A stretch of 58,181 nt of DNA from a virus (lineage: Duplodnaviria > Caudoviricetes): the IMG/VR virus record IMGVR_UViG_3300043429_000067, positions 1-58,181 of that record, one strand, 5' to 3'. The notes under the pieces are model-generated. The model was not told where the DNA came from. It did not search any database and saw only the letters and a list, made by a program, of their open reading frames with translations. This document shows positions 2,550 to 46,340 of the stretch, one piece after another (positions within the stretch are counted from its first letter, which is position 1; each line of letters begins with the position of its first letter). A program made the translations under genes and the position numbers.

Positions 2550-2559
2550 TAGGTGACTT

Positions 2560-3411
2560 ATGCCGTTACGTTCCCTCCCCGGTAATTTTGTCTCTAACGG
2601 GTACAACCCCGCAATACAAACTACGTCTTTTATAGACGTGGAGTATCTCGTTGTTGGCGGTGGCGGTGCAGGTGGCGGTTCGGGCGGCGGTGGCGGTGGC
2701 GGTGGCGGTTTCCTAACTGGAACTAATTTTCCTGCACCTTTCGGTACAAGCCTTACTATCACTGTAGGATCAGGTGGCACAGGTGTTAGTGATGGTACTG
2801 GTAATAGCGGCGGCAACAGCGTATTCTCCTCAATAACCGCTACTGGCGGTGGCGGAGGAGGAAAAGGCGGCGCTCCTGCTGCCGCTGGGGTAAGTGGCGG
2901 TTCAGGTGGCGGCGGCGGTGGCTATCATGAGGGTACGTCGCAATCGGGGGGAAACGGCACTGCTGGACAAGGTAACAACGGCGGCACTGCTAGTGGAACT
3001 GGACCTGCTTATGGCGGCGGCGGTGGTGGTGGCGCTTCTGCTGTTGGGAGCAACGGTGGATCGACTTTTGCTGGAGCAGGAGGCGCTGGGCGCACGTCTA
3101 GTATAACGGGCACATTCACTACTTACGGCGGTGGCGGTGGCGGCGCAGGGTTTACCGGCTATTCTGGCGCAGGCGGCGCAGGCGGTGGAGGCGCAGGTAA
3201 TGGCACTGCTGGTACCGCAAACACAGGCGGTGGCGGCGGGGCTCGCGTAAATAGTGGAGCGACTACCGGTGCTAATGGTGGTTCTGGTGTTGTAATCCTT
3301 CGGCATTCATCGGCGTACCCAACCGCAACAACAACAGGCTCACCTACGGTTACCACTGCTAATGGTTATGTTACATATACATTCACGGGTTCGGGCACAA
3401 TTAGATTCTGA
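2560..3411 (+). CDS. Glycine-rich tail protein
   Basis: VEYLVVGGGG, GTANTGGGGG and GGSGVVILR motifs. Confidence 0.75.
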   Translation: MPLRSLPGNFVSNGYNPAIQTTSFIDVEYLVVGGGGAGGGSGGGGGGGGGFLTGTNFPAPFGTSLTITVGSGGTGVSDGTGNSGGNSVFSSITATGGGGGGKGGAPAAAGVSGGSGGGGGGYHEGTSQSGGNGTAGQGNNGGTASGTGPAYGGGGGGGASAVGSNGGSTFAGAGGAGRTSSITGTFTTYGGGGGGAGFTGYSGAGGAGGGGAGNGTAGTANTGGGGGARVNSGATTGANGGSGVVILRHSSAYPTATTTGSPTVTTANGYVTYTFTGSGTIRF

Positions 3412-3419
3412 GGTATGAC

Positions 3420-3893
3420 ATGGCACATTACGCACAACTAGATGAAAACAACGTGGTACTGCAAGTCATTGTGGTGCATAACAGCGAACTCGTGGCGAGC
3501 AAGCAAACGACTGTGAACGAAGATGGCAGCATTGCTGTCAGTGTTATCGAGTCGGAAGATAAAGGCGTCGAGTTTTGTCAATCACTGTTTGGCGCAGATA
3601 CTCGTTGGGTACAGACCAGCTACAACGGTAACTTCCGTGGTAAGTACGCAGGTATCGGGGATATATACGACGCAGAAACTAATGAGTTCCGTACCTCTAC
3701 TGAGGCGTCTAGCGACGACGTTCTTATTATCGCCCCTGCTATACAGACTCAGCAAACAGTCGTTTTAGAAACGCAAGCCACGATAGCTTTAGAAACGCAA
3801 GCCACGATAGTGTTGGAATCGGCAGATATTTCTGCTTTGATCTCGGCAGATATACAAGCATTGACCAGCCAGCAGATTTCCGGATTGGAGTAA
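3420..3893 (+). CDS. Putative tail-fibre assembly chaperone with repeat-containing C-terminal extension
   Basis: MAHYAQLDENNVV and WVQTSYNGNFRGKYAGIG motifs; follows Gly-rich gene. Confidence 0.55.
   Translation: MAHYAQLDENNVVLQVIVVHNSELVASKQTTVNEDGSIAVSVIESEDKGVEFCQSLFGADTRWVQTSYNGNFRGKYAGIGDIYDAETNEFRTSTEASSDDVLIIAPAIQTQQTVVLETQATIALETQATIVLESADISALISADIQALTSQQISGLE
3765..3810 (+). repeat. Tandem repeat, 24-nt period (ttagaaacgcaagccacgatag x2)
   Basis: Directly visible; encodes LETQATI twice. Confidence 0.85.
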
Positions 3894-5990: not shown

Positions 5991-5993
5991 GAC

Positions 5994-18632: not shown

Positions 18633-21600
18633 ATGGCACAGGCTGGACTGTCGTTCGCTAACCCGTTCATGGAAAAGACGAGTGTTGGCGAACCTGCTAA
18701 CCCCTATGCACCGTTCAGTCCTACATCATCCATCGGGATGGGTGGGCTCGGTCCTTCACTCGCTGACATGGCCGTCACCGGCCAGCAACTTATAAAGCAA
18801 AGTCAGTTCACTCTCCCTGAGTTCACCCGCCCACCCGCTGGCGCATCGATCGCATTTAGCCCGGCTGAGAAGAAAGTCTTTGTCAACGGGCTGACGTTCG
18901 ACGTAGATGATGCAACCTCCGCGCTGCAGTCTGAATCCTATATGCGTGGTCCCGGCACGGGACTCCCCAAAGGGGGCGACTGGGTTCCACTGGATGAAGG
19001 CACCTATGCACAGTATCTCGACGCCATTCGTAACCCTACTCTGGGACGCCTCGCAAGTAAGAATTTCGGGCGCGGTGTTGATGTTATGCAGTCTCTGGCT
19101 GGCCGGGCGCTGCAACTGGCGGGTGCTGAGGGACTGGGCGGTCGTATTGTCGCCGCGCAAGAGGCTGATCTGCGTAAGACAGCGCCTTATGAACGCCAGT
19201 TCACGGATATTGAATCGGGTCGCGGCGCTGTTGAGTGGCTGGTGGCTAACTTCGCACAGCAAGGACCCAACCTTATTGAATCTGTTGCGACTGCTGGACT
19301 GGGTTTCTTGGCTGGTACTGCTGTTGGCGGTCCTGCCGCTGGTGTGTCTGCTGCTTTCTCTGGCCTTCTAGGTAAGTCCGCATGGAAGGAATCCGTCAAA
19401 GCTGCACTGAAGAAGCAAGCCGCTGGTGAAGCACTGGACGCTGCAGAATCCAAGCTGATCAGGGAAGCCGCCGGTATCGCTGGCGCTGTTGCTACGTCCT
19501 ACGCACAGAATCTGGCCACGGGTGCCGCCGACATCTACGGTGAGTTGCGTGACCAAGGCGCTGATGCTGGTGATGTGGATGCTCGACTGAAGGCACTGGC
19601 AGGTTCCGTCCCGTACGCCGTCCTTGAGACACTGCCTGAATACCTGCTGGCCGGTCGTATCTTCAGCGGTATGGGTGCTCCACGGGCTATGGCTCCGGGC
19701 GCTTCGTTGGGTCGTCGTGGTGCTGAGTTGCTGCGCCGTGGCGCAGTCGGTGGTGTTGTCGGTGGTACGGCTGAAGGTGCCACGGAAGCTGGTCAGGAAG
19801 CTCTGTTGCTGGGTATATCTGGCCAAGACCTGTCCTCTCCTGAAGCCGTCAACCGGCTGATCAACTCGTTCGCTGCGGGCTTCGGCGTTGGTGGTCCGAT
19901 CGGCGCTGTGGCCAACCTGAAGGGTAAAGCTCCAGCCAACCTGTTGAACCCCGGCCAGACAACCGACCCGTCTCCTGAGCAACAGAATCCCCCGCCCGGT
20001 GGTCCGCTTGCCCCTGTGGCACCTGCGTCCCCGTTCGGCTTTACACAGCCCATGCCGCCCGCTCCGGGTGCTCCTGCTGCTCTCCCCGGTGGTGCTCCTG
20101 CTGCGCCCGCACTTGGCGCTCCTGTGACTGCTCTGCCTGCTGATCAGGCCATTATGGTGACTGGACAGGAACCGCTCCCGTCGGGTCCCGGCACTCAGGG
20201 TGTGCTGAATATCTTTGGACCTGAAGGTGTGTCGGCACAGGAGTTGGCAACCCGTATGCAGCCCCCGGCTGCTCCTGCTCCCCAGCCCGCAGCACCTGCT
20301 GCACCTACTCCGCAGCCCGGCCAAATGGCATTGCAGTTTGCCCCACCGGTACCGGGCGCAGAAGCTCCGTTCAATCCGCAGATGGCCAATCAGATGCAGG
20401 CCATCCAGCAACGCATTCAGCGGCAGCGTGAGTTCGAGATGGCTCAGGCACAGGCGGCTGCCCAGCAGCAAGCTCAGATGGATCAGATCGCACGACAGAG
20501 CCAGAACGCCCGTGATCTATACATCCTGCAGCAACAACAGGCGGCAGCCGCTGTACAGCCGTCCCCGCAACAACTTCCAAGAGTTCCTGCTACCCCGGCG
20601 GAGCCTGTGCAGTTACCGTTGTTCACACCCAAGCAAGCCCCACGTCCGTCACGTGGCGAGGGTCTGCGTAAAGGTGGCCGCGCAGCGGCGCTTCCTCCGA
20701 CTGGTGTACCGGCTGTACAACCACGTGTTGACCTGCGTCGTTCGCCACAACTTCCGCTGTTTACACAGGAAGGCCAGCCGTCGTTGGCAGCACTGCGAGC
20801 CGCAGGTGTGAAGGGCAAACTTCCAAAACCTACACTGGAGAAGGGTGCCAAGCAGATCAAGCCAACAGGCAAGGCTGTAACACCTGCCACGGTTGAGAAG
20901 GCCAAGGCAGATCGACTGGCTGCTATCAAGGCAGCTTCTGAGAAACTCAAAGCGAAGGGGAAAGAAGATGCCGCTCAAAAAGGGAAGCAGCAACAAGGTG
21001 GTGTCAGCCAACGTCAAGAAGATAATGGACGAGTACAAGGCGGGCGGCAAGCTGGGGAACAGCCCAAGGCCGAAGTCCAAAAAGGCGGCGCTGAAACAGG
21101 CCGTCGCGGCGAGCCTCTCAAGCGCGGGGCGCAGCAAGAAACCTTAACCGACAGGTTAAAAGCTCGTATTGCTAAAGGCGCTTTCGGGGGACCGACCCCA
21201 AAAAAAGTCGGGGCGGCGGTAGCCGCCGTTGAGGTCGAAGCTCTCCCACCGGCTGAAGCGTGGGAAGACATGAAGCCTGAAGGTGCACCAGCATACAACG
21301 CCCTGACACGCGCTGCCCAGCAGGAATGGGCGGGCGCACCTGCTCGTACTATGGCTTTGGCAGAGAAGCTGGCTGCTGGCGAGACAACGATCGAGGAGCG
21401 CGAGCCGACTGCCGCTGAGATACTTGCTGAGGAAATCCAAGCTGCTGAGGAAGCCACCGACATCCGGACATTCCGCGATGCTATCCAGACGGTGATGGAG
21501 TATGCGTTCTTCACCAACGAAGAAACCAACACCAAGAAACTCGTAGCCCAAGCACAAGCGTTCCTCGATAACACCCAGTTCTCACTGGAACAGATGGGCG

Positions 21601-24600
21601 CAATGGATCAGGCGTTCTTGGATGCTGCGCAGTATCGACTCACGCTGGATGCAACCTACACCCGTGGCGGTAAGAAAGACCAGCCCAAGCCGTGGTTTTC
21701 CTACGCGCTGGCACGTAACCTGCTGCCCAGTATCAAAGCCAAACTGATCAACCTGCCCGCTGTTTACAAGGCCGCTGCTCCCGCTGGCGAGAAGACGATG
21801 AAAGCTGGTGCGCCTAGCACAGCCAGCCGCATTACGAGCACACCACAGGAGTTGCTTGGTGAACTGATCAGTGATCTGATCACGCAGATTCGTGAAGTGT
21901 CCAACCTGAACGCGCCGATGAAGTTCCGTGGCGAGACGTATACCAACCTTGTTGATCTGGCCAAGCAGTTGTATGCCAAGGTGGACGCGGCTGGGAAAAA
22001 CTTCATCGTTCGTGGGTATAAACTCAGTGAGTACTTCAAGGCTGACGGCACACCCAAGACACTGAAGTCCGGTGGTCGCGTCATCATTACCAATAAGGAA
22101 CTGACTGCCGAACAGCAAGCCGAGTTGGAAAAGCAACAACGCGCCGAGAAGAAAGCAATGGCCGCCGAGCGCCGTGCCGCAGCACAGGAAGAATTCAACC
22201 GCACTGTGTCGCCCGAGGAAGATGCTTGGGACAATGACGATGGCCGCTTCTACCGTGATGATGGCAGCCCGATCAACACAACGGTGCCCATCGGTCGTGT
22301 CAAGATTCTGGTCAACAGCTTCCTGTCCAAGCTGCGCATGAAGCCAACCGTTGGTGTGTACGCCAATGTCGAAGACCTGCGCCGCCGCAACCCCAAGCTG
22401 TACGAACAGGCAGCCGCTGCTCGTGGTAATGGTGACTTCGGTACTGTCAAGGCTGCTGGCTATTCGTTCGGTAAAAACGTCCTGATCTTCACCGACTTCA
22501 TCCGTACTGAACAACAACTGAAGTTCATCCTTGCCCACGAAACACTGGGTCACTTTGGATTCAGGGGCATCATGCCAGCAGCACAACTGGACAAGGTGCT
22601 GAACCGTATCTACGAGGTTGACCCAGATGTCCGCGCCGGTGTGGACGCAATGATGCAAAGCCGTGGCCTTCCGAAGTCAGAGGCCATCGAAGAATATTTG
22701 GCAGACAACGCCGCTGATCTGGATGTGTCCATCGTGACCCGCATCTGGAATGCACTGAAGAACTTCCTGAACAAGCTGGGCATCACGTTCCAAGACGACG
22801 AGGCTCGGTACTTCATCAACCAAGCTCGCAAGTATGTGCGCCGTGGTGACACTGGTAACTACGTCAACGCCCGTACGCTTGTGGAGGATATGGAGCAACT
22901 CGATGCGGACAGAAATGATGGCCGTTACGCTACTGCTCCTATTGGTGATCTGGCTTCACGTGCATTTACTGCTGGCGCTCTGAACCGTAGGCACGGTGGT
23001 ACAGGTGGACTGGCTGGCGCAGCACAGGCATTTGTTGATGGGGTATTCGGTGCCCGGCGTAATGTGCCCGGCAAGGTTGCCTCCATCCTTGAACAGATAC
23101 AGACACTGGACAATAAGGCACGTCGTAGCTACGGCCTGAACCAGATATATCGGATGCTGGAAAAGCAACAGCAGTTCTCCCGCGCATTGCTGTCGAAGTA
23201 CCAACGCATGACTCAGTTCACCCACTCGCCTGATCTGTTTGGTCTGGGTAAAGGTGTGACAGAAGCTCAGAAAGAATCTGCTGGTGAGTTGCTGGCTCGT
23301 GCCGCCTTGCTCCGTGCGGCTGCTGCGACGGATGAAGCAATCAAGTCGTATGACTCTCTGGTATCTGTTGACGACATGGGTAATGTCACGGTCAATCCAC
23401 TGGTGCGTCAGCAGATCGAGCAAGCAGGTTTTGTTACCGCCGAGGAGTTCCGCAAGGGCTTTGACGTCGAGTACTCCAACGGTGAGAAGGTGCGCTTCCA
23501 GTTCGACGTGGACGAGAACAGCCCTGAGTGGAAGGTGTATCTGGAAACCCGTGATACGGTCAACGAAGCTGCCATCGATCTGATGCTGGCTAACTACGAA
23601 GCTGCACAGGCCGAGGGCAAACGGGTTGTTGGTGATCTGAACAACCAGCGCACTACCACCAACAAGTTTACGAACGATGATCTGGATGCTATCCGGCGTG
23701 CAGCGGAACTGTATAAGAACAAGCGGTACCAAGGTAGTGACGTGGCAAGTGCTGGTGTAGAGGTAAAGAAAGCGGCTGCCAAGGATTCGGAGGAGTTCAT
23801 CATTGCGTTCGGTCGTGCGCTGTTCAACGATGATGTGTACAAGGTGTGGGTGAAAGACCCGACCGCCAGCGCAGAGATTGCCAAGGACTTTGAGAAGTTC
23901 ATGGCTGCTGAGTACGACGATCTCCGCGCTGCCCTGCCAAGTCTGCGCTCCAAGATTCGCAACGAGAACGACTCGTTCGCTGTACAGAAGGCAGTGCGCG
24001 ATCTATTCATGTTCGACCTGCAGTCCAAGAACGCAGACTATTACGCCAAGCGTACTATCCTTGGCTCGTATGTACCGTTCGTACGCCGTGGTACTGAGCA
24101 GGTTCGATTGGTGGCAGTGGATGCAAACGGCAACACGGTTAAGCTGGACGAGAATATCCGCAGCACCCTGCCGTACTTCCACACTGACACCCGTTCCGAA
24201 GCAGAGGCTATCGCGGCTGATCTGGAGAAAGAGTTCGGTGACCAAGAGTTCACTATGCTGGACGATACCGGCGCAGAGGTTAAGGTACGCTTGATCACTG
24301 AGGTGTCGAAGAACCGACAGTCGCCTGACCTGACTGAAGCCGTGAACTTTAACGAGTTCGTGTACGTACTGAACAGGCTCAACGCCAACATTGCTCCGGA
24401 CGTACGCGAGAAGATCATCACGACACTGACCAACCAGAACAGTCGTGCTCGTCGTAACCTGCAGCGTTCCGGTACCGAGGGATGGGATAAGGATGTGATC
24501 CGCTCTGTGTCCGAGCACCTTGAGACATCTGCCCACGTAGCAGCCAAGAAACTCTATCGCCATCGACTGGACGATGTGCTGCTGGATAACCGCAACTGGC

Positions 24601-26474
24601 TGGGCGATGATCAGAAACTGAAAGACCTGAAGGATGCTGTAGCCAACGCGCAGACTGACGGTGAGCGGGCACGTGCGCAACGTGCCTACGATGAGTATGC
24701 GTACATGTACAGATACATGGCTGGTAGCACCGGCAAGCGTACTGTCACGATCGATGGCGAAGAAGTACCCACGCTGGGTCGTGGCGAAGATTATCGGGAA
24801 GAAGCCAAGCAGGTGCTGCGCTGGTACAGTGAGGCCACCAATATCACCGACTCCACTGAGGATATGCTCTCGGGTGAGGCTGGCTCTGCACTGAAACTGG
24901 CAACCGTCCTGATGCAACTCGGTGGCTCCGTGGCTACAGCGGTGATCAACTTGGCTTCGATGGCTACCCACAGTCTGCCGTACCTGTCCTACTACAACTC
25001 CAAGCGTGGCTTCGGTGGTGGATACGGTGAGTCCAAGGCTGCGTCTGCTCTGTTCCAAGCGGCTCGTGATGTGAAGAACCGCAACCTGTCCGAAGCTGCG
25101 TTCCTGAACGACATACTGCGTGAAGGTACGTACGACAGGTACAACCTGACAGAAGATGAAGCACAGTTCCTGTTCCAGCAGACTGAGGAAGGCACACTGC
25201 AAGCAGCCCAGTTCAACGCACTGGTGGGTACCGCTCGTGGCAAGGTGTTCAACAACAAGGCTCAGGCTGCGATCAAGCTCTGGATGGAGATGTTCTCCTA
25301 CACGGAACAGTTCAACCGCCGCGTAACCGCTCTGGCTGCGTACCGCTTGGAGAAGGAACGTGCACTGGCGCAGGGTCTGACCGAGGAGCAAGCCATCCGT
25401 GCTGCTACCGAAGCTGCTCGCACTGCCGTCAATACTGCTCAGGGTGAGTATGCGATGTTCAACCGCCCTGAGATGGCTCGCGGTAACGTACTGCAATACG
25501 TGTTCATGTACAAACAGTTCGTGATCGTTACAGTCCAGTTGATGCGCAGCTTGCCGGTCAAGGGTCAACTGATGATGCTGGGCTTCCTGCTGCTGACTTC
25601 TGGTCTGAAGGGTCTGCCGTTTGCAGAAGATATATTCGACATCGTTGACACCATAGCTCAAAAGCTGGGCTTGAAGATGGCCAGTGTGGAGAAGGAAATC
25701 ACTGAGTGGGTTGACAGCGTGGCTCCGGGTATGACCCCGTATCTGATGCGTGGTGTACTCGACCGGATGACTGGTGCCACGATGTCTACCCGTCTGGGTA
25801 TGGGTGATTTGGTGCCACTGACTGGTGCGTTCCGCGCTGGTGCTGACCCGGCTCGTGAAGTGTCTGACTTCGCTGGCCCTGTGTTCTCTGGTATCTCTGG
25901 TCTGGTAGGTATGGCTGGCAGCCTCGGTAAGTACGGTGCGGAAGTGATCGGTCTGCGGGATGATGTGACTACCATCAACGGTATCCTGCGTGACTCTCCG
26001 GTTGCGGCTCTACGTGCGATGGGTGACAGCTACGCTTACCTGAACAGCGGAATGATTACCAACGCTCAGGGACAAGTTGTACAGCGTGAAGCACCCTACC
26101 ACGTGATCCTTGCCCGACTGCTGGGCTTCTATCCGGCCATTGCTTCTGAGCAGAACGACATCGTGCGGCTGTCCAAGTACGTCGGTGACTATGCCAAGGC
26201 GATCAAGGCTGAGTATGTCAGTGCGTACGTCAAGGCAACACTGTCGGGTGATCGTGAACGTGCACGGGAGATTGCAGCCGCAGTGCAGGAGTGGAACCAA
26301 GGTGCTGAGGGTACGGGGCTTACTATCCGTACGTTTGAGAAAGATGCTGCACGTGCAGCCTTGGAAGCCGGTCGGCCTACAGCACTCAGGTATCTCCGTT
26401 CAGCACCCAAGCAGATGCGTCCGGAGACAATCGAGTTGCTGCAAGCCTATGGCCTGTACGACGAGATCAGGTAA
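18633..26474 (+). CDS. Giant internal virion/ejection protein (2613 aa, polyvalent-protein-like) with zincin-like motif
   Basis: Last gene of late arm; LAHETLGHFG...EEYLAD motif; Pro/Gln-rich linker. Confidence 0.7.
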   Translation: MAQAGLSFANPFMEKTSVGEPANPYAPFSPTSSIGMGGLGPSLADMAVTGQQLIKQSQFTLPEFTRPPAGASIAFSPAEKKVFVNGLTFDVDDATSALQSESYMRGPGTGLPKGGDWVPLDEGTYAQYLDAIRNPTLGRLASKNFGRGVDVMQSLAGRALQLAGAEGLGGRIVAAQEADLRKTAPYERQFTDIESGRGAVEWLVANFAQQGPNLIESVATAGLGFLAGTAVGGPAAGVSAAFSGLLGKSAWKESVKAALKKQAAGEALDAAESKLIREAAGIAGAVATSYAQNLATGAADIYGELRDQGADAGDVDARLKALAGSVPYAVLETLPEYLLAGRIFSGMGAPRAMAPGASLGRRGAELLRRGAVGGVVGGTAEGATEAGQEALLLGISGQDLSSPEAVNRLINSFAAGFGVGGPIGAVANLKGKAPANLLNPGQTTDPSPEQQNPPPGGPLAPVAPASPFGFTQPMPPAPGAPAALPGGAPAAPALGAPVTALPADQAIMVTGQEPLPSGPGTQGVLNIFGPEGVSAQELATRMQPPAAPAPQPAAPAAPTPQPGQMALQFAPPVPGAEAPFNPQMANQMQAIQQRIQRQREFEMAQAQAAAQQQAQMDQIARQSQNARDLYILQQQQAAAAVQPSPQQLPRVPATPAEPVQLPLFTPKQAPRPSRGEGLRKGGRAAALPPTGVPAVQPRVDLRRSPQLPLFTQEGQPSLAALRAAGVKGKLPKPTLEKGAKQIKPTGKAVTPATVEKAKADRLAAIKAASEKLKAKGKEDAAQKGKQQQGGVSQRQEDNGRVQGGRQAGEQPKAEVQKGGAETGRRGEPLKRGAQQETLTDRLKARIAKGAFGGPTPKKVGAAVAAVEVEALPPAEAWEDMKPEGAPAYNALTRAAQQEWAGAPARTMALAEKLAAGETTIEEREPTAAEILAEEIQAAEEATDIRTFRDAIQTVMEYAFFTNEETNTKKLVAQAQAFLDNTQFSLEQMGAMDQAFLDAAQYRLTLDATYTRGGKKDQPKPWFSYALARNLLPSIKAKLINLPAVYKAAAPAGEKTMKAGAPSTASRITSTPQELLGELISDLITQIREVSNLNAPMKFRGETYTNLVDLAKQLYAKVDAAGKNFIVRGYKLSEYFKADGTPKTLKSGGRVIITNKELTAEQQAELEKQQRAEKKAMAAERRAAAQEEFNRTVSPEEDAWDNDDGRFYRDDGSPINTTVPIGRVKILVNSFLSKLRMKPTVGVYANVEDLRRRNPKLYEQAAAARGNGDFGTVKAAGYSFGKNVLIFTDFIRTEQQLKFILAHETLGHFGFRGIMPAAQLDKVLNRIYEVDPDVRAGVDAMMQSRGLPKSEAIEEYLADNAADLDVSIVTRIWNALKNFLNKLGITFQDDEARYFINQARKYVRRGDTGNYVNARTLVEDMEQLDADRNDGRYATAPIGDLASRAFTAGALNRRHGGTGGLAGAAQAFVDGVFGARRNVPGKVASILEQIQTLDNKARRSYGLNQIYRMLEKQQQFSRALLSKYQRMTQFTHSPDLFGLGKGVTEAQKESAGELLARAALLRAAAATDEAIKSYDSLVSVDDMGNVTVNPLVRQQIEQAGFVTAEEFRKGFDVEYSNGEKVRFQFDVDENSPEWKVYLETRDTVNEAAIDLMLANYEAAQAEGKRVVGDLNNQRTTTNKFTNDDLDAIRRAAELYKNKRYQGSDVASAGVEVKKAAAKDSEEFIIAFGRALFNDDVYKVWVKDPTASAEIAKDFEKFMAAEYDDLRAALPSLRSKIRNENDSFAVQKAVRDLFMFDLQSKNADYYAKRTILGSYVPFVRRGTEQVRLVAVDANGNTVKLDENIRSTLPYFHTDTRSEAEAIAADLEKEFGDQEFTMLDDTGAEVKVRLITEVSKNRQSPDLTEAVNFNEFVYVLNRLNANIAPDVREKIITTLTNQNSRARRNLQRSGTEGWDKDVIRSVSEHLETSAHVAAKKLYRHRLDDVLLDNRNWLGDDQKLKDLKDAVANAQTDGERARAQRAYDEYAYMYRYMAGSTGKRTVTIDGEEVPTLGRGEDYREEAKQVLRWYSEATNITDSTEDMLSGEAGSALKLATVLMQLGGSVATAVINLASMATHSLPYLSYYNSKRGFGGGYGESKAASALFQAARDVKNRNLSEAAFLNDILREGTYDRYNLTEDEAQFLFQQTEEGTLQAAQFNALVGTARGKVFNNKAQAAIKLWMEMFSYTEQFNRRVTALAAYRLEKERALAQGLTEEQAIRAATEAARTAVNTAQGEYAMFNRPEMARGNVLQYVFMYKQFVIVTVQLMRSLPVKGQLMMLGFLLLTSGLKGLPFAEDIFDIVDTIAQKLGLKMASVEKEITEWVDSVAPGMTPYLMRGVLDRMTGATMSTRLGMGDLVPLTGAFRAGADPAREVSDFAGPVFSGISGLVGMAGSLGKYGAEVIGLRDDVTTINGILRDSPVAALRAMGDSYAYLNSGMITNAQGQVVQREAPYHVILARLLGFYPAIASEQNDIVRLSKYVGDYAKAIKAEYVSAYVKATLSGDRERAREIAAAVQEWNQGAEGTGLTIRTFEKDAARAALEAGRPTALRYLRSAPKQMRPETIELLQAYGLYDEIR
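20968..21147 (+). CDS. Nested small basic protein (59 aa) in +1 frame of giant gene
   Basis: GAAGGGG upstream of ATG; MPLKKGSSNKVVSANVKKIM...KQAVAASLSSAGRSKKP resembles a widespread stand-alone phage peptide family. Confidence 0.6.
   Translation: MPLKKGSSNKVVSANVKKIMDEYKAGGKLGNSPRPKSKKAALKQAVAASLSSAGRSKKP
21186..21232 (+). promoter_or_regulatory. Candidate -1 ribosomal frameshift signal
   Basis: GGGGGA, A7 run (A_AAA_AAA in frame), 5-nt spacer, GGCGGC-ggta-GCCGCC hairpin, TGA in -1 frame at 21230. Confidence 0.5.
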
Positions 26475-34482: not shown

Positions 34483-34848
34483 TTATCTCTCGTCAATGAT
34501 TTCAAGTTCAGGGTTAAGGATGCGATGCTTTGCCAGTGCTGCTGTCAGTGAGTCCTCGGTGGGATACGTCAATACCTTGCCGTCTCCACTCTCGATCTGG
34601 TACATGCCACGTTTGGTCTTACGTACAATGATGCTGTTGCTATACGGATTACCATTGACATACGTACGTAGTACGTTATTTACGTTACGCACTACGGATA
34701 TATGCGACCACTTGTTCATCTCCAACTTCATAGACCCAATATCTATAGGCTCAGGTACACCTCCCGTCTCAGCGATATTGGCTACGTTCACCTTCCCGTC
34801 TGCTTTTGGGTACACCCATGCTTCAAAGGTATAGTCATCGCTCATCAC
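34483..34848 (-). CDS. Hypothetical protein with LamG-like fragments
   Basis: YTFEAWVYP and NKWSHISVVRN..RTYVNG. Confidence 0.5.
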   Translation of the reverse strand: MMSDDYTFEAWVYPKADGKVNVANIAETGGVPEPIDIGSMKLEMNKWSHISVVRNVNNVLRTYVNGNPYSNSIIVRKTKRGMYQIESGDGKVLTYPTEDSLTAALAKHRILNPELEIIDER

Positions 34849-36719
34849 GCATCTCCGTAGTTCTTGGCGTAGCCACTTTCACAAGCAACTGGTAAGTCTG
34901 GTGCCCACTTCGGCGGAGTGAACATGATCTGCTCAAGATACTGCTGTGCTGTAGTCGCCATACTTTCCTCCGCCGCGATGATGATCTCATCGTGAACTTG
35001 GAATACAACTTTGTACAACTTGCCAGCCGCGACCATCTGCTCACGGATAACCAATGCAGCCAGTGCTTGCACTACATTCTCTGTCACCTTCCCACCGTAG
35101 ATACGTGTCCATGACACATCGTCCATCGTGCCAGTCGTCACCCTGTCACGTATTGCCTTGCGGTATGAACGCGCATCACTGATGTACTCGAAGCCATTGG
35201 TCGACGAGCGCAGCGCAGGGTATTTGATACGCAACTTGTTCGGCAGGATGATGCCCTCGTTGTCGAACGCCAGCACACCGATGTTGCCATTGCCACCTTG
35301 TACCATCTGAGTCAGCGCGTTACCGCACTGGTTCCACAGTCCTACGATCTTGTGGTTCTTTGCGCGGTACAGTCTGACGATACGCTCGGCCTCGTTCATG
35401 TCGATCTTGACACTGATGCCAGCCTGTCCGATCTCCAGTGTGCGTCTGAACTTCTCTGCACCCATGCCGTAGCCCAGCCCAAGCACACAGGTCTTGCCAA
35501 CAAATCGCTCAACCTTATCCGCTTTGGTAATGGGGCGCCCATATACCTCCGTGGCAAACTCAGAGTACACATCCCGCTTCTCTCTGAACGCTTGCACCAG
35601 ATCATTCTGCCCGGCCAACCATGCAACAAGTCGTGCCTCGATCTGCGACGAGTCTGCTGCTACCAGTACATATCCCTCTGGTGCCTTCAGTGCTTTCTTG
35701 ATCGTCGTGTTGCCACGGCTCGGCAGGTTCTGAAGGTTCAGCTTATCGCCACCGGACAAGCGCCCCGTGTGTGCGCCATAGTAGTTCAGCATGATGGGCA
35801 AGCGCCCCCGCCCAGCGACACCGATCAGTGCGTTGGTGCGCGTCTCCTCAAGGGTAGACTTGACCCCCAGTCGTGCGGACACCACCGCTTGCACCCGCTC
35901 GTCCGGATGCTCCAACAGATCAGTCAGCCCCTTGTCTGTCTTTGAGAACGCCCACGTTTCTTTACCTGTAGTCGGGCTCACCTTGCGTGGTGGCTCTACC
36001 CCAAGGTTCTTCAGGTACTTGGCGAAGATGTCGTTGCTCATCAGCATCTTGGTCAGTGCTTCCTCGCTAACGCCTGTCAGCCCCAAGTCTCCAATGAGCG
36101 TCCGCTTGCGTGTCAGAACTTCAGCAAGATGTTTCTGAAGTAGCGGCACATCCAACTCGATCATCGGCTCGGTGTACATCCGTATGATCTGGTCAATCAC
36201 CATGATCTCAGTGACAGGGAAACCGATGCGCATCCGGTCGAACAATGCCTTGGTAATGTTGACATCGTTCTTGCAATACTCGGCGTACGCTTTCATTTCA
36301 TCAGGCGTAAAGTCTTTCTTGCGTTTCCCCAATGCGTTGGTAACTTCTGTGCCCTTCTGCCCCAGTCCATAGAACGTAGCCAGTGCAGCCAAGCTACCAC
36401 CCACAGTCAGGTTATGGGGAGGCCGCGCCATACTCAGTGTATCCAACCACAGCTTCGGCTTGATTCCGAAATGCCATGACAGGATGGCACCATCGAATGC
36501 AGTGTTGTGACATAGGATAGCTTTGTTCCTGTAGTCGAGGCTGTTCAGAAACTTGCCGGGGTTATCACCTGAGTACCAGTCAGTAGGGTAATCGTTGACC
36601 TTGATACCTACACCTATAACCTCGAACCTATCGTCACGTACGTACGCCTCCGTGGTCATCTTGGATAGTGAGTAGTCCTTATCGTAGTACGTCTCGAAGT
36701 CAATCGTCACTATGTCCAT
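34845..36719 (-). CDS. polA: DNA polymerase family A with 3'-5' exonuclease
   Basis: DFET, HNTAFD, HTGRLS, NLQNLP, DSSQIEAR, KTCVLGLGYG, VHDE. Confidence 0.95.
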   Translation of the reverse strand: MDIVTIDFETYYDKDYSLSKMTTEAYVRDDRFEVIGVGIKVNDYPTDWYSGDNPGKFLNSLDYRNKAILCHNTAFDGAILSWHFGIKPKLWLDTLSMARPPHNLTVGGSLAALATFYGLGQKGTEVTNALGKRKKDFTPDEMKAYAEYCKNDVNITKALFDRMRIGFPVTEIMVIDQIIRMYTEPMIELDVPLLQKHLAEVLTRKRTLIGDLGLTGVSEEALTKMLMSNDIFAKYLKNLGVEPPRKVSPTTGKETWAFSKTDKGLTDLLEHPDERVQAVVSARLGVKSTLEETRTNALIGVAGRGRLPIMLNYYGAHTGRLSGGDKLNLQNLPSRGNTTIKKALKAPEGYVLVAADSSQIEARLVAWLAGQNDLVQAFREKRDVYSEFATEVYGRPITKADKVERFVGKTCVLGLGYGMGAEKFRRTLEIGQAGISVKIDMNEAERIVRLYRAKNHKIVGLWNQCGNALTQMVQGGNGNIGVLAFDNEGIILPNKLRIKYPALRSSTNGFEYISDARSYRKAIRDRVTTGTMDDVSWTRIYGGKVTENVVQALAALVIREQMVAAGKLYKVVFQVHDEIIIAAEESMATTAQQYLEQIMFTPPKWAPDLPVACESGYAKNYGDA

Positions 36720-37489: not shown

Positions 37490-37880
37490 CGAACACTCCA
37501 AAATATTTACGTAAGAAATAACTCTGCTCTCGCAGTATCTCGTCCATTGCCTCCAGCAACTTCTCTCTCGACGGTGTAGTCTTGCTTGTATGGATAGTGA
37601 ACTCCGCTGTCTCGGCAAACCCTACCAGTACATCACTGGGAAAGTCCTGATTCTTGATGCACCATGCCAGTCGACGTAACCACACAACATCCCCCCAGTG
37701 CGGACGTTCATACGTGCCACGCCTACGTGCGCTACCAACATCCTGTAGATACTTATCCAGTACCCCCAGCTTGGCACGTAAACGTACGCCTTGCTTGAAC
37801 GCCCGCAACTTGGAAAGCCACTCACGCTTTACATCAGGGTTCTCTACCACATGAGGCGGCTTTATCTTGCGTACCCTCAT
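37437..37880 (-). CDS. Hypothetical protein
   Basis: ATGA-coupled ORF. Confidence 0.55.
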   Translation of the reverse strand: MRVRKIKPPHVVENPDVKREWLSKLRAFKQGVRLRAKLGVLDKYLQDVGSARRRGTYERPHWGDVVWLRRLAWCIKNQDFPSDVLVGFAETAEFTIHTSKTTPSREKLLEAMDEILREQSYFLRKYFGVFDDSRSEGLQQSEGTTTG

Positions 37881-38503
37881 ACGATAAGCTTCTGTGCCGT
37901 AGCCATAGCAGTCAGCCTACCCAGATCGACGTTCAACTGTGGCTCATCCTTCTTAACCTTCTCTTTGATCTCACGGTGCTTGTCCTTAGCCCACTCAGGT
38001 ACGATGTCCCATAGCGGAGGCCATGTCCGTAGCGCAGCCGCAAGCGTTGCATGGTTGTTGACTACCTCACGTACCATGTCACGGAACTCAGTACGCCTCT
38101 GCTGTGCAGCGTGAATCCTCTCGCGTTTAGCAGTGTATAGGTGGAATAGTTCATCCCATACAGTGTGCTGCCTCAACTCGAAATTATTGTATGAATCCAT
38201 ACGTATAAGTTCGTTATCCCATGATCCGAAAGGCATAACTTCAGAATTTGTAAGTGTGAAACTTAGGAAGCATTGAATACCACCAATCTTATTAACCTTA
38301 ATTTCGCTTCTCGTATACAGAAATTGTGTAGGTACAGCACTCAGCACATCCCTGTACTCACCGAAGATAGTCTCGTAGATGTAATCTCCCCAGTGTTCAC
38401 CCAGATCAATCCTCTCGGCTTCCTCTACCTGTTTGCTGAACTTGTTGTATGCAGACGTTATGATCTGATTACGCAGTTCAGTACCCAATTTAACTGTCGC
38501 CAT
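37877..38503 (-). CDS. Hypothetical protein, Nmad5-like
   Basis: GGAGGGGG RBS; TLAAALRTWPPLWDIVP motif. Confidence 0.5.
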   Translation of the reverse strand: MATVKLGTELRNQIITSAYNKFSKQVEEAERIDLGEHWGDYIYETIFGEYRDVLSAVPTQFLYTRSEIKVNKIGGIQCFLSFTLTNSEVMPFGSWDNELIRMDSYNNFELRQHTVWDELFHLYTAKRERIHAAQQRRTEFRDMVREVVNNHATLAAALRTWPPLWDIVPEWAKDKHREIKEKVKKDEPQLNVDLGRLTAMATAQKLIV

Positions 38504-38714
38504 GTGTACCCCCTCCTGTTTGTCGTTTAACTCGAACCTCGATACCAGTTTCTGTACGGCGCACATCGACATTACCTGAAGCAATATCATTCAATGCCCG
38601 ACTCATCATGTTACAAGCATCACGTGCTTCATTAAGCTGGTGCTGTAGGTATATGACGTACCCACCCAGTCCGATGAATGCAACGAGCGCAATGAACTCA
38701 GCGTATGTAATCAT
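38490..38714 (-). CDS. Small membrane-anchored protein
   Basis: N-terminal TM helix then coiled coil. Confidence 0.55.
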   Translation of the reverse strand: MITYAEFIALVAFIGLGGYVIYLQHQLNEARDACNMMSRALNDIASGNVDVRRTETGIEVRVKRQTGGGTHGDS

Positions 38715-38992
38715 TTAATTCCCATCCTATAACGTGCAGTCATCGCTACACACAAGTCCTCTACGGTGTCGAACTTTATCCACGGTGAACCGGGAGATGA
38801 TATCTTCGCAGCGTACTGTACCTTCATGTTGTACATCTCTGGGTTGTACTCAATCTGCTTTGCCATCTTGAATGCAGGGTACCAGTCCAGCTTGTCAGCA
38901 TTCCACCAGTTGACACGCACCTCCCATTCCGTACCACTGAGATGGTGCCTGTCACGCTTGTGTATAGCAAACCCTTCGGGTAGCCGTATCAT
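38711..38992 (-). CDS. Hypothetical protein
   Basis: ATGA-coupled ORF. Confidence 0.55.
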   Translation of the reverse strand: MIRLPEGFAIHKRDRHHLSGTEWEVRVNWWNADKLDWYPAFKMAKQIEYNPEMYNMKVQYAAKISSPGSPWIKFDTVEDLCVAMTARYRMGIK

Positions 38993-40146
38993 TTCATCAT
39001 CACCACTTCACCAAACGGTGCCTTGTCACGATAGTTGGATACCCACAGCACAGGGCAATCGGGCTCATCACCGAACGAGTCACAGCACAAGTCAGTCAGG
39101 AACACACAAGCTACCGGTTCGATCTGGTGCTCACGCATGTACTCGAACACTGGTGCAAAGTCTGTACCGCCACCGCCATGTGGCTTGATGTCCAGTGAAT
39201 CATCACGCTCATACGACTCGTAGTGGCATACCTCACTGTCGAAATAGATAACGTGTATCTTGGATGGGTTCATATCATCCTTGACGAACTGTATCTCGGC
39301 AGCGAACTGGTTGATCTCACGCTGTCCAATCGAACCGGAGCAGTCAACAGCGAACACAAGCTCACCCAACTGTTCACCACTGACACTGGGCAGATAGATT
39401 CCTTGTGACATAAAGCGACGATTCGGTCGTGCCCATGAACGGCTGTCAGTCTTGGCCTTCTGTACGAACTTACGCAGCACATCCCGCCAGTCAACGGCAG
39501 GTTGCAGCACCTCATCTACCAGTCGTCGCATGTTCTGAGATAGCTTGCCCATCATCTTCGCTGCCTGTGCAGCCTGCGCAACAGCTACCTTCAACTCAGC
39601 TTGTTGCTGTGCCTGTTCAGCCGGAGAACCATCAGCATCTTCGCAGTCATCTAGCGGACCGCCGGGTTCACCAGCACCGCTACCATCACCGGGCATATCA
39701 GGCAGGACGTTGTAGATACCGTCAGCAGTACCACCACCTGCGTTATAGATGTTCCTATCCAGCAGCCCCTGCTTTGGCATCTTGCCGATGTTCTCGTCCG
39801 ACAGTAACTGGTTGATCACATAGTCACCGGCCATGTTCCATCGCTTTGCTTGCCGCCCGTTACGCCGGAAGATATGCTCAAGCATAGGGTGAAAGCACTC
39901 GTGTGCTGCAAGGAACTTAACCTCCTCGTCAGTCAGCGTATCCAGAAAGTCAGGATTGAATACCACCCGCTTGCCATTGGTTGCTGCCGTAGGTACATGT
40001 CGGCTTAACTCAAACGGCATACGCATGGCGATACTACCGATGAACGGATGCTCCAGTATCAGGCTGGTCTTTGCTTTAGCCAAACGGATACGGTTCTTCT
40101 CCGCTTCCTGCGGAGTAATTTCTTTTGTCTCGATTACTGTAGTCAT
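38989..40146 (-). CDS. HExxH metallopeptidase plus VWA domain protein (DUF2201-like)
   Basis: TAATNG, AHECFH, DCSGS MIDAS, GGGGTDF, FLTD; GGAGG RBS. Confidence 0.85.
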   Translation of the reverse strand: MTTVIETKEITPQEAEKNRIRLAKAKTSLILEHPFIGSIAMRMPFELSRHVPTAATNGKRVVFNPDFLDTLTDEEVKFLAAHECFHPMLEHIFRRNGRQAKRWNMAGDYVINQLLSDENIGKMPKQGLLDRNIYNAGGGTADGIYNVLPDMPGDGSGAGEPGGPLDDCEDADGSPAEQAQQQAELKVAVAQAAQAAKMMGKLSQNMRRLVDEVLQPAVDWRDVLRKFVQKAKTDSRSWARPNRRFMSQGIYLPSVSGEQLGELVFAVDCSGSIGQREINQFAAEIQFVKDDMNPSKIHVIYFDSEVCHYESYERDDSLDIKPHGGGGTDFAPVFEYMREHQIEPVACVFLTDLCCDSFGDEPDCPVLWVSNYRDKAPFGEVVMMK

Positions 40147-40265
40147 AAGTCCTCCACGCATTCACGTACATACTCTCGCGCCCCTTCAAAGGCAACGATA
40201 ACCATAGCGATAGGCAACATGAACCATGCCATCACGCCAGTAACTACTGCGATTACTTTACTCAT
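40143..40265 (-). CDS. 40-aa hydrophobic peptide (not in ORF track)
   Basis: MSKVIAVVTGVMAWFMLPIAMVIVAF...; ATGA coupling. Confidence 0.45.
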   Translation of the reverse strand: MSKVIAVVTGVMAWFMLPIAMVIVAFEGAREYVRECVEDL

Positions 40266-40269
40266 ATAC

Positions 40270-40374
40270 TCACCCCAATATCCACATCGCTAGGAAAAAA
40301 CCTGCGGATACCAGACACACCAGTACCCAGCAGGTTATTGCTATTGCTCTCAAGAAGTCATCATCGTCACCCAT
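40270..40374 (-). CDS. 34-aa TM peptide
   Basis: MGDDDDFLRAIAITCWVLVCLVSAGFFLAMWILG. Confidence 0.4.
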   Translation of the reverse strand: MGDDDDFLRAIAITCWVLVCLVSAGFFLAMWILG

Positions 40375-41221
40375 TGGATGCACCCATGAACGAACCCATA
40401 GCCGCCATGATTCGTCGTGCCTCCTCTGCCGTATCGCTACGCAGATCAGGGTCATTACGCAGTGCATCAGGATGTTTCAGCAGCTTGCTCTCGACCTCCT
40501 GCCGCAATGCCTCAAGGTTAGGGTCGTCAGCAAAGTTAAGGCGAGGCAGTAACGCACACAGTTCACGTGCATTCTCGATCATGCTGGATTGAAAGACAGC
40601 CTTCGGGTCAGACAGCTTCTCTGCCATGTGTTTAACACGGTCAAATAATCGCTGCCATACCTCTTGCATGGCGTTCTGTTGTGCATTCATGACTCTGGCC
40701 TCAACGTCCTGTTGGATACGCGACAACTCGTCTGATGCAATGCTTACTCGGAAGTCTGATGATGGCACAGGAAATACCGCCATGTCCATACGAAACTTAT
40801 CAGTGATAGATTCCTGCGATGGGTAATCAGCCGGATCATAGAGACTACCTAAGATACTCTGAGCGTTCTGTATAAGTACAGGATACTCAGTCACAAAGTC
40901 ATTGACCAGCGACATCCACTCTGACTTCTGCTTGCGAAACTCTGTCATGAATTGCAAGTAGTTACTCGACGGCAGCATCATCGTGCCATCCATACCCCAC
41001 GGCAAAGTGTTCTTGTAGTAGATGTTCCTGACAGTCGTTGTCTTTTTGTGTACTGCATCCAGTAAATTGTGCATCGGCAGCAACGACTTGTTATACCGGC
41101 CAGCATCGACTGTCGTGCCATGTGTATTGGCAACCTCTTTGGTTACCTTCTTGTCGTACTTACGTGCCATCCACTGGCTGACGTTCAACTGTACGAGTAG
41201 TGCTCTGTCATTCAGGTTCAT
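40367..41221 (-). CDS. Conserved helical phage protein (DUF3150-like)
   Basis: TLPW, YDPADYPS, LPRLNFADDP motifs; between ATPase and VWA genes. Confidence 0.65.
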   Translation of the reverse strand: MNLNDRALLVQLNVSQWMARKYDKKVTKEVANTHGTTVDAGRYNKSLLPMHNLLDAVHKKTTTVRNIYYKNTLPWGMDGTMMLPSSNYLQFMTEFRKQKSEWMSLVNDFVTEYPVLIQNAQSILGSLYDPADYPSQESITDKFRMDMAVFPVPSSDFRVSIASDELSRIQQDVEARVMNAQQNAMQEVWQRLFDRVKHMAEKLSDPKAVFQSSMIENARELCALLPRLNFADDPNLEALRQEVESKLLKHPDALRNDPDLRSDTAEEARRIMAAMGSFMGASNG

Positions 41222-41472
41222 TTAATTCCCCTTAAAAGTTTGCATTTAGTTACGTATGCTACGAAGTGCTCGCTGTGTTCTACTGCTTTGGATACTGCAT
41301 AGTTGTGTACTACTGTGCTAGTGGTTACCTGCCCTGCCAATCGTCGATGATCAGCAGGGGTTATCAGTGACAGCTTGTCGAGATATATGACCCAATCGTA
41401 TATAAAGACTGGGTCATTCCAATGAATGTCGCTCTCCATTAGAACAGCACATTCTGGTGCTTCAACGACCAC
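41218..41472 (-). CDS. Hypothetical protein (true start probably ATG 41439)
   Basis: Fills gap between coupled genes. Confidence 0.45.
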   Translation of the reverse strand: MVVEAPECAVLMESDIHWNDPVFIYDWVIYLDKLSLITPADHRRLAGQVTTSTVVHNYAVSKAVEHSEHFVAYVTKCKLLRGIK

Positions 41473-42428
41473 TTGATAAACGCTTGTGTGTTAGCCAAGT
41501 CAGGATTCTTACGGCAAGCGTAGCTGATGGTCAGCACTGAGAACTCCGGAGGCATACGCTCTGCATAGGTACAGACACGTTCAAAGTTATTCTCGGTAGC
41601 ACGTTCAGCAATCGAACCGGACAGGGCATACAGTGTCGCAGGGTCAGTCGGTACTTCACCAGCAGTCGGGTTCAGCAGGATGTTGTCAGGGTTAGGTAGC
41701 TTGCGCCATATCCGCAGATAGCCAGTGAACTCGGCAGCAGCACCCTCACCGACAGCACCCTTGAAGCACTCGAACTCGGCAGATGCAGGGACAGTACCCA
41801 TGATGGCAGACACACCCTCAACCCATGACCGTGGTGTCGGGTTGCTATCACGCTGTGGATCGAAGTCATGCAGCAGACCGCTACGAAACCGCAGGAACGA
41901 TATGACCTCGGCCTTGACACCGTTATCGATCATCCACTGTGTACTATCGTCAAGATGCGTCTCAAGCTCAAGCACTGTCTCGCGGTTACGCAAGTGGCTT
42001 AGGATACGGTTCGCACCAGCCCTGTCAGACTGACGATTGCCCGTCGATATGACCATCCACCCGTCAGGCATCGGTGTGCCATGCAGGTTACGTGCTTGAC
42101 AGATGTTGGCCAGCACCTTCTGCAACTCGTTACCAGCCTGATTGCGGTCGTCGAATAGCAGGATGCCCTCATCAGGCGCTTCCCCCTTGACTGGAAACCA
42201 GTCGGGCAACTCGTAATGTAAGCCTCGCTTGTTATCATTCTTGAACAGGATGCCGAAGTCCTCGACCAGCATGGTCGGCATGTGCTTCTCTACAACAGGT
42301 ATACCAAGCTCCTGTGCAGCTTCATGAACGATCGTTGTCTTACCACCTCCGGGAGCACCCTCGATCGACAATGTACGACGTGTTGGATACAGTGCCTTGA
42401 TAGTGTCCTTCAACAGTGATGCTCTCAT
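41439..42428 (-). CDS. MoxR-like AAA+ ATPase
   Basis: GAPGGGKT, LLFDD, STGNRQSDRAG, LRNR, PTPRSW. Confidence 0.85.
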   Translation of the reverse strand: MRASLLKDTIKALYPTRRTLSIEGAPGGGKTTIVHEAAQELGIPVVEKHMPTMLVEDFGILFKNDNKRGLHYELPDWFPVKGEAPDEGILLFDDRNQAGNELQKVLANICQARNLHGTPMPDGWMVISTGNRQSDRAGANRILSHLRNRETVLELETHLDDSTQWMIDNGVKAEVISFLRFRSGLLHDFDPQRDSNPTPRSWVEGVSAIMGTVPASAEFECFKGAVGEGAAAEFTGYLRIWRKLPNPDNILLNPTAGEVPTDPATLYALSGSIAERATENNFERVCTYAERMPPEFSVLTISYACRKNPDLANTQAFIKWSLKHQNVLF

Positions 42429-42681: not shown

Positions 42682-42859
42682 GATTCCCCCTCGGCGGTAT
42701 GGTGTAGAACAGATCATGCAACTGTCGATGTATAGCGTCTTTGCGCTCTGTCTCCAGTGCATAAGTAGTACGCTTCTCTACCTTACGAGCATGTTTACCT
42801 GCACCACTCTGCTTGGCAGCAGCTACGAAATTACGCGGCTTTAGCTTTGGCTTTGTCAT
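42668..42859 (-). CDS. Small basic protein
   Basis: KPRNFVA...GAGKH motif; GGAGGG RBS. Confidence 0.5.
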   Translation of the reverse strand: MTKPKLKPRNFVAAAKQSGAGKHARKVEKRTTYALETERKDAIHRQLHDLFYTIPPRGNHDGS

Positions 42860-43406
42860 TTTTCTTCCCTCCATCTGGCCATCCAGCTTTCATCAAGTCC
42901 GTTACCAAGTCCGTAATGGCTGGTAACGTCTTACACTTTGGGTCAGCATCCTCCGGCAGATACTTAGCAAACTCAGGCATTGCATCTCTGGCTTGCTTGA
43001 CTGTATTAAACGACCGGATAGTGGCGTATAGTTTGGTTTCCAATGAACCAAGCACTTTACTTTGTGCTATCTCATCGGCATCAATCTTCCGCAGTGCAAG
43101 CACTACGTCCTTGTCTGTAATCTTGTACGTAGTACTACCGCCATCTGTATCAGGCACAAGCCAGAACTTGCCCAGACCCCACGAGTAACGGCTATTGTTT
43201 TCTGATTCATAACATACATGGTCAGGACGGAAATATATTTGCGTTGCCTTGTCCTTGTACATACGCATCACACTGGCTGGTGCAATGGCAAACAGGTGAT
43301 CTTGTATAACTTTCCTGCGCTGTTCCATGTGATCCACCTTCGGTGTGTCCTGCAATACCGAATTTACAAACGCACTGCGGATAGAATCGTTAAGACGAAT
43401 ACTCAT
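42831..43406 (-). CDS. Nmad5-like protein
   Basis: RLNDSIRSAFV...TVKQARDAMPEFAKYLP pattern. Confidence 0.6.
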   Translation of the reverse strand: MSIRLNDSIRSAFVNSVLQDTPKVDHMEQRRKVIQDHLFAIAPASVMRMYKDKATQIYFRPDHVCYESENNSRYSWGLGKFWLVPDTDGGSTTYKITDKDVVLALRKIDADEIAQSKVLGSLETKLYATIRSFNTVKQARDAMPEFAKYLPEDADPKCKTLPAITDLVTDLMKAGWPDGGKKNDKAKAKAA

Positions 43407-46185: not shown

Positions 46186-46212
46186 GCAATAAAAAACCCG
46201 GCTTGCGCCGGG
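46186..46212 (-). terminator. Rho-independent terminator
   Basis: CCCGGC-GCAA-GCCGGG followed by TTTTTTATT. Confidence 0.8.
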
Positions 46213-46218
46213 CTTGGG

Positions 46219-46302: not shown

Positions 46303-46340
46303 TTGGTTCTCCAGTTGCCCGGCTTGCGCCGGGCTTTGGG

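Follow-up and report, generated by a model that had tools for sequence, protein, structure and literature searches.

Phages and cells both encode pairs of a MoxR-type AAA+ ATPase and a partner protein with a VWA domain. Gene 24, of unknown function, and gene 25, with a vWFA domain, of phage N4 are counted among 14 core genes of N4-like phages and transcribed as middle genes according to Chan et al. (2014; PMC4193335). For group 2.2 jumbo phages, Iyer et al. (2021; PMC7824862) describe a MoxR AAA+ ATPase paired with a vWA protein that bears a metallopeptidase at its N-terminus; by analogy to the tail assembly of the Acidianus two-tailed virus (ATV), they suggest that the pair acts in assembling and processing virions. 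In the cellular NorQ-NorD system, the VWA domain of NorD inserts a finger into the pore of NorQ, and the C-terminus of NorD contacts NorQ as well (Kahle et al., 2026; PMC13036017). MoxR-vWA ternary conflict systems of the VMAP, iSTAND and FtsH types, with other third components, are presented by Kaur et al. (2020; PMC7159879). Here we analyse such a pair in the virus record IMGVR_UViG_3300043429_000067, a complete record of 58,181 bp (completeness estimate 100%) that was studied as a whole and is called the window below. The pair itself is already published as a phage feature; the addition is a third gene, encoding a DUF3150-like protein. No description of a three-gene module was found in the literature searched, the supplements of Iyer et al. 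(2021) lying outside that search. The preliminary description of this DNA overlooked that the pair had been published, that the middle gene encodes a DUF3150-family protein and is a constant third part of the module, and that the three genes also travel on conjugative plasmids.

The three genes of the module are the following:

41439..42428, minus strand: MoxR-class AAA+ ATPase, 329 amino acids (aa), phrog_1297 (E 7.6e-65)

40367..41221, minus strand: DUF3150-like protein, 284 aa, the third module member

38989..40161, minus strand: zincin metallopeptidase-VWA fusion, 390 aa, DUF2201_N plus DUF2201, phrog_1314

The linkage of these genes was followed in two sets of related viral loci. Close loci were fetched by the VWA protein (326 of 335 pattern matches confirmed, the best 80 of these being used) and were counted when at least 2.5 kb was present on either side of the DUF3150-like gene, a requirement that excluded 33 loci for short flanks and retained 47. 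The ATPase, DUF3150-like and VWA genes were all present in 47/47, always in the order ATPase-DUF3150-VWA. Distant loci, at 31-42% identity, were fetched with a 12-sequence DUF3150 alignment (114/114 matches confirmed, best 80 of these used) and were counted when their flanks reached 4.5 kb or more upstream and 3 kb or more downstream. In the resulting 40 loci the three genes were found on the same strand in every case (40/40), in the orders ATPase-VWA-DUF3150 (26 loci), ATPase-DUF3150-VWA (13) and DUF3150-ATPase-VWA (1). An ATPase match was missing from 13 of the 40 excluded distant loci, in each of which the DUF3150 gene started at most 2.3 kb from the contig end where the missing gene was expected. 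The same trio is carried by the Planktothrix cyanophage Pra-JY27. As the linkage survives permutation of the gene order, it constitutes the strongest evidence obtained here that the three genes act together. The trio is a strictly linked module with the DUF3150-like gene as its fixed third member, and the co-occurrence on which the preliminary description had staked its proposal was found in both sets of loci.

No significant match was found for the DUF3150-like protein of the window in Pfam (none at E ≤ 0.01) or PHROG. Among its aligned relatives, 12/31 matched PF11348 (DUF3150), with a best E of 1.3e-7, and 29% of the members of an Atlas neighbour cluster carry PF11348. The rank-1 structural match in BFVD was a 'DUF3150 domain-containing protein' (E 6.5e-18, TM 0.54/0.53; eight matches at E ≤ 1e-3), and the homologue in Synechococcus phage MinM2 is annotated as DUF3150. 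The middle gene product appears to be a distant member of the DUF3150 family, the literature on which is almost absent, only a passing BLAST remark having been found. Relatives are abundant, with 2134 at E ≤ 1e-3 among 3090 candidates (90% clusters) and, when compared with 50%-identity cluster representatives, 6410 at E ≤ 1e-3, of which 4511 at E ≤ 1e-10.

The predicted structure of the DUF3150-like protein (predicted local distance difference test, pLDDT, 90.6; predicted template modelling score, pTM, 0.55) begins with an alpha/beta domain (residues 1-151) and ends with a bundle of four helices (163-284), so that the term 'helical protein' used in the preliminary description suits the second half of the protein but not the first. 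A Foldseek search of this model against the PDB returned nothing at E ≤ 1e-3. Palm-type domains (Cmr2/Cas10, GGDEF, adenylyl cyclase and Thg1) recurred in Foldseek at E 0.2-0.7 and were too weak to use, and apolipoprotein A-IV, the sole match of the DUF3150-like profile in PDB sequences (E 0.0033), was discarded as reflecting helical composition. Comparison of the same profile with the Nmad5-like neighbour by hhalign revealed no relation (probability 0.13). Four proteins of 582-675 aa that join DUF3150-like and DUF2201_N/DUF2201 regions were considered as fusion (Rosetta-stone) candidates among 2990 candidates; they belong to one lineage, with near-identical N-terminal halves and differing out-of-frame Arg/Pro-rich stretches, and were therefore read as frameshifted assemblies of adjacent genes and not taken as evidence.

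A conserved motif made of a small, an aromatic and a hydrophobic residue followed by Gly (e.g. AYMG, SFMG) is found near the C-terminus in most of the 31 DUF3150-like proteins of the alignment; 0 to about 60 variable residues come after it, and the model confidence drops there. This motif may be a docking peptide. In the Tunturiibacter phage Tunturi_3, a DUF3150-like gene (5875-6834) lies about 2 kb downstream of the gene for a 531-aa classical AAA ATPase (2180-3775; PF00004, E 1.9e-7), and neither a MoxR-like ATPase nor a VWA gene was found in its 12.7-kb stretch. This arrangement suggests that AAA+ motors of different kinds may serve as partners of DUF3150 proteins.

In the 390-aa protein, DUF2201_N was detected at residues 26-260 (E 6.6e-46, 157.5 bits against a gathering cut-off of 23.2) and the VWA-like DUF2201 at residues 268-389 (E 2.2e-28, 99.3 bits against 26.4), and phrog_1314 was matched with E 2.6e-106. 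The zinc site HECFH occupies residues 87-91, as part of an extended HExxHxxxxH at 87-96, and an acidic Gly-rich linker spans approximately residues 140-200. The metal-ion-dependent adhesion site (MIDAS) reads DCSGS at 273-277 (D273-x-S-x-S) and is completed by T333 and D357. In an alignment of 27 diverse VWA proteins, H87, E88, H91, H96, D273, S275, S277, T333 and D357 were all invariant. PHROG 1314 bears the label 'HNH endonuclease', which is repeated for the zincin-VWA protein in many GenBank phage records, whereas Pfam detects DUF2201_N and DUF2201 and nothing else; the name looks like an annotation error that has spread. In Tunturi_3, 'HNH endonuclease' is also the label of the DUF3150-like gene.

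The family assignment of the ATPase was clear in PHROG, with phrog_1297 ('ATPase') as the match given above, whereas in Pfam the AAA family was detected weakly (E 4e-4), AAA_5 reached 18.1 bits, below its cut-off of 22, and AAA_3 was not reported. Fold and context thus mark the protein as MoxR-like, but by the Pfam threshold it is not a member. In its AlphaFold model, built on a 23-sequence alignment (pLDDT 90.8, pTM 0.79), the predicted fold is MoxR-like, the ten best Foldseek matches in the PDB being all NorQ or CbbQ2 (E 9.8e-10 to 6.1e-9, TM (target) 0.61-0.67, 251-261 aligned columns, sequence identity about 13-16%), followed by AAA+ modules of dynein, Rea1 and clamp loaders. Together with the complete MIDAS and HExxH of the partner, these matches bear out the earlier designation as a MoxR-type ATPase with a VWA partner.

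The Walker A motif of the ATPase, GAPGGGKT at residues 24-31, fits the P-loop GxxGxGK[ST], and Walker B reads LLFDD at residues 90-94, with an acidic pair D-D in place of the usual D-E. Thus, the three near-adjacent genes with intact Walker A, HExxH and MIDAS motifs noticed in the preliminary description do exist as open reading frames (ORFs) with family matches far beyond chance, and its reading of the Walker B residues was correct. Conservation was scored in 113 unique ATPases from the fetched loci. K30 was present in 108/113, the remaining five being gapped at this position (108/108 ungapped), N131 and R149 in 113/113, and R200 in 112/113; the last three are candidates for sensor-1, the Arg finger and sensor-2, roles that were read off the alignment and not from structural superposition. 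The Walker B pair was DD in 58 sequences, DE in 52 and EE in three. DD was fixed in the clade of the window (53/53) and found in 5/56 of the distant sequences, most of which retain DE, and the four cultured-phage homologues have DE. As DD is fixed in the clade while the other ATP-site residues are retained, the alignment points to a selected lineage variant rather than to decay.

Cultured phages, compared in 50,697 records, contained relatives of the ATPase in 618 records and of the VWA protein in 705, mostly N4-like, rV5-like and jumbo phages, whereas the DUF3150-like protein was detected by tblastn in just four. The window proteins share at most 37% identity with their cultured-phage homologues. 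In Thermus phage phiFa, Vibrio phage D511 and Rhizobium phage RHph_TM29 the ATPase gene precedes the VWA gene with 0-3 small genes between them. In these three phages no third partner was detected, either with a DUF3150-like hidden Markov model on their ORFs (best E 1.9) or with Pfam on the neighbours of 230-360 aa (no match). The window thus carries the three-gene form of a module that is common in phages with two genes.

When the module is compared with the described systems, N4 genes 24/25 and the jumbo-phage pair share with it phrog_1297 and phrog_1314 (DUF2201_N plus DUF2201), the position of the ATPase upstream of the VWA gene and a place in an early/middle region near polA; it differs from them in the fixed DUF3150-like gene and in the Walker B DD instead of DE. 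With NorQ-NorD, CbbQ-CbbO, RavA-ViaA and CobS-CobT it shares the fold class of the ATPase and an adjacent gene for a VWA partner with a MIDAS. To our knowledge, the partners in these four systems have no zincin peptidase domain and no DUF3150 subunit. Moreover, the clients of the cellular MoxR/VWA pairs are defined cellular metalloenzymes, whereas the window module is carried by mobile elements. Like the VMAP, iSTAND and FtsH ternary systems, the module follows a three-part scheme in which a MoxR ATPase and a vWA protein are joined by another conserved component that is helical in part, and peptidase domains are frequent in those systems (PMC7159879); it differs from them in that the third component is DUF3150-like, the peptidase is fused to the vWA protein and the carrier is a phage or plasmid and not the chromosome of a multicellular bacterium. 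A PADLOC search with the three window proteins gave no significant match (best E 0.0025, restricted to the P-loop region of the ATPase; none for the DUF3150-like or VWA proteins).

The position of the module was then considered. The plus strand of the window carries the terminase, portal and head genes, and a minus-strand block running from about 46.2 kb to 26.5 kb contains many small genes, followed by the trio and then by replication genes, among them a PD-(D/E)XK exonuclease, an SNF2 helicase, a DUF927 primase and the following:

34845-36719, minus strand: family A DNA polymerase (polA), downstream of the trio

The trio is thus located among early/middle replication genes, directly upstream of polA, and on the strand opposite to the head and tail genes. 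The nearest cultured relatives of polA are those of the Rhizobium phages RHph_TM (37% identity), and a megablast search of the trio region against cultured phages gave no match; the phage belongs to an uncultured clade.

The trio is also present on conjugative plasmids, namely pBVIE02 of Burkholderia vietnamiensis G4 and a plasmid of Simplicispira suum. A tblastn search of PLSDB (thresholds E ≤ 1e-3 and 1e-5) detected the DUF3150-like protein in 62 records and the VWA protein in 84, from Burkholderiales and a few others; enterobacterial plasmids were not among the matches at these thresholds. Both proteins gave the same genus counts across the Burkholderiales (Burkholderia 27, Paraburkholderia 9, Cupriavidus 8, etc.), at adjacent coordinates. 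Carriage by conjugative plasmids and the position in the replication block argue against virion assembly as the general role of the module. MoxR-VWA systems are known as assembly chaperones. A chaperone for virion assembly with peptidolytic processing of structural proteins is the role proposed for the jumbo-phage pair by Iyer et al. (2021; PMC7824862). Nevertheless, conjugative plasmids make no virions and carry the same trio; unlike the ATV-type assembly systems, the trio of the window lies in a replication block opposite to the structural genes; and N4 genes 24/25 are transcribed as middle and not as late genes (Chan et al., 2014; PMC4193335). We therefore regard virion assembly as very improbable for this module.

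The same position raises a second alternative, in which the trio is a housekeeping remodeller that assembles, activates or processes the replication or recombination complexes of the element itself, without attacking host proteins. Besides the location of the trio directly upstream of polA and the replication genes in the window, polA is also downstream of the ATPase-VWA pair in Vibrio phage D511 and Rhizobium phage RHph_TM29. In the close clade, median identity was 77% for the ATPase, 68% for the DUF3150-like protein and 69% for the VWA protein, compared to 73% for polA and 35-52% for the flanking genes; by this measure, the trio evolves as slowly as the DNA polymerase. A conservation equal to that of polA, the core status of N4 genes 24/25 and the sharing of the trio by conjugative plasmids, which also need to establish replication, are all in favour of this alternative. 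On the other hand, neither a conserved cleavage site nor an acidic docking motif was identified in any replication protein. In addition, the HIDEN-SEQ preprint (bioRxiv 10.1101/2025.11.20.689424) states that the MoxR ATPase of phage Bas54 is dispensable on Escherichia coli K-12, where the knock-out grows, the gene being needed only against one predicted defence system. As viability on K-12 fits poorly with an essential replication role in Bas54, we consider the housekeeping explanation rather unlikely, though serious enough that an internal role in replication ranks second among our readings.

A third alternative concerns genes that flank the trio and that resemble Nmad5, presumed to be DNA modification proteins:

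42831-43406: upstream Nmad5-like gene, clear in Pfam (E 5.7e-11)

37877-38590: downstream Nmad5-like gene, weak in Pfam (E 0.0081)

Like NorQD, CobST or CbbQO, the trio could be an insertase for metals or cofactors, serving a phage enzyme such as these neighbours, a possibility to which the flanking position of both genes and the nearest solved folds, those of metal-insertion and enzyme-activation chaperones, lend some weight. However, the module has an invariant HExxH peptidase site, for which we know of no counterpart in those chaperones. The downstream Nmad5-like gene is retained in the clade, at 23-42% identity, but the upstream one was found in 0/80 related loci while the trio persists, and the trio-bearing plasmids and the cyanophage contain no constant candidate for a client enzyme. 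An insertase is, in our opinion, improbable. A link of such genes to defence has been reported in a Dhillonvirus, in which mutation of nmad5 allows escape from Tmn defence (PMC11846954).

The above results suggest that the trio forms one protein machine of mobile DNA, which probably remodels or cuts some protein soon after DNA entry. Most likely, its target would be some host protein standing in the way of the incoming DNA as it becomes established; as the purpose, we rank counter-defence or host takeover first, ahead of the internal role in replication. To this reading as a whole, with the mechanism outlined next, we would give about an even chance. By analogy with the solved MoxR/VWA pairs, the ATPase would form a hexameric motor, on which the 390-aa protein would dock through its VWA domain, with the MIDAS metal holding an acidic residue of the target, and ATP-driven remodelling would then make this target accessible to the zinc peptidase fused to the VWA domain. 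As an invariable third subunit, the DUF3150-like protein would most likely serve for adaptation or regulation. Its four-helix bundle is of a generic type found in peptide-binding modules. Expression of the trio would accompany that of the replication genes, early after the entry of phage or conjugative plasmid DNA.

Partial support for action against host defence comes from the same preprint, which names bas54_0063, a MoxR ATPase of the Vequintavirinae, as one of the two genes needed against the predicted defence system DS-28 (bioRxiv 10.1101/2025.11.20.689424). Several points weigh against our proposal. This is the sole experimental link to defence, and it concerns a subfamily whose ATPases share about 27% identity with that of the window over 64% of its length, bas54_0063 being presumably such a homologue. 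Genes in an arms race are not usually core genes or as conserved as a polymerase, and both features would suit a housekeeping role just as well. For the N-terminal domain of the DUF3150-like protein no fold match was obtained, and this domain may be an enzyme or a DNA binder. In the clade of the window, the DD pair of Walker B may slow or otherwise alter the hydrolysis of ATP. The preliminary description had already suggested that the genes may remodel or degrade host defence proteins; this idea gains from what the preprint says of one distant homologue in another phage family, loses weight because the trio is as conserved as the polymerase, and is kept here as a hypothesis.

A more specific and clearly more doubtful form of the counter-defence proposal is that the trio is a three-subunit 'establishment protease' of tailed phages and conjugative plasmids, in which DUF3150 would select or sense the target and a conserved host barrier against entering DNA would be destroyed; the module would then be a broad, slowly evolving counter-defence device and not a chaperone.

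Between the trio genes, three small ORFs were observed:

41218..41472, minus strand: 84-aa ORF between the ATPase and DUF3150-like genes, its stop overlapping the start of the next gene by 4 nucleotides

40270-40467, minus strand: 65-aa small hydrophobic ORF in the spacer between the DUF3150-like and VWA genes

40143-40265, minus strand: 40-aa small hydrophobic ORF in the same spacer

The 84-aa ORF had no match in Pfam or PHROG and was detected by tblastn, with an identity of about 50%, in 2/80 related loci (L005 and L041). The spacer that contains the other two measures about 200 nucleotides, and most other relatives pack both genes tighter. Over the same 80 loci, the 40-aa ORF was detected in L005 and L041, the two nearest relatives, and the 65-aa ORF in these two and partially in L024 and L030, none of these matches reaching 70% coverage. 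The products of the 65-aa and 40-aa ORFs seem membrane-like, as read from sequence only, and the small ORFs between the trio genes appear to be lineage-specific.

Elsewhere in the window, no tRNA genes were found, and a scan for promoters and terminators was not above shuffled controls. Two near-identical GC-rich hairpins with T tails (46194-46215, minus strand; 46317-46334, plus strand) lie on opposite strands where the early block, which runs leftward, borders on the genes that run rightward, and may be a terminator pair. A 2613-aa ORF (18633-26474) follows the tail genes, with PHROG matches (of unknown function) only in its C-terminal ~500 residues; its product may be a giant virion or ejected protein. 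The large genes 3897-5990 and 5994-8687 adjoin each other and have a common C-terminal domain that matches the same tail/baseplate PHROGs; their products are probably paralogous receptor-binding proteins.

Of the phage gene pairs to which no function has been assigned, that of the ATPase and the peptidase-VWA protein is one of the most widespread: it belongs to the core genes of N4-like phages and occurs in rV5-like and jumbo phages. The window is one uncultured example of the module and has no particular advantage for experiments. The recognition of one strictly linked module in phages and plasmids narrows its possible functions and defines a clean set of three proteins for biochemistry. Should the trio act as an establishment protease, this would also explain the long-unknown role of the N4 core genes 24 and 25.

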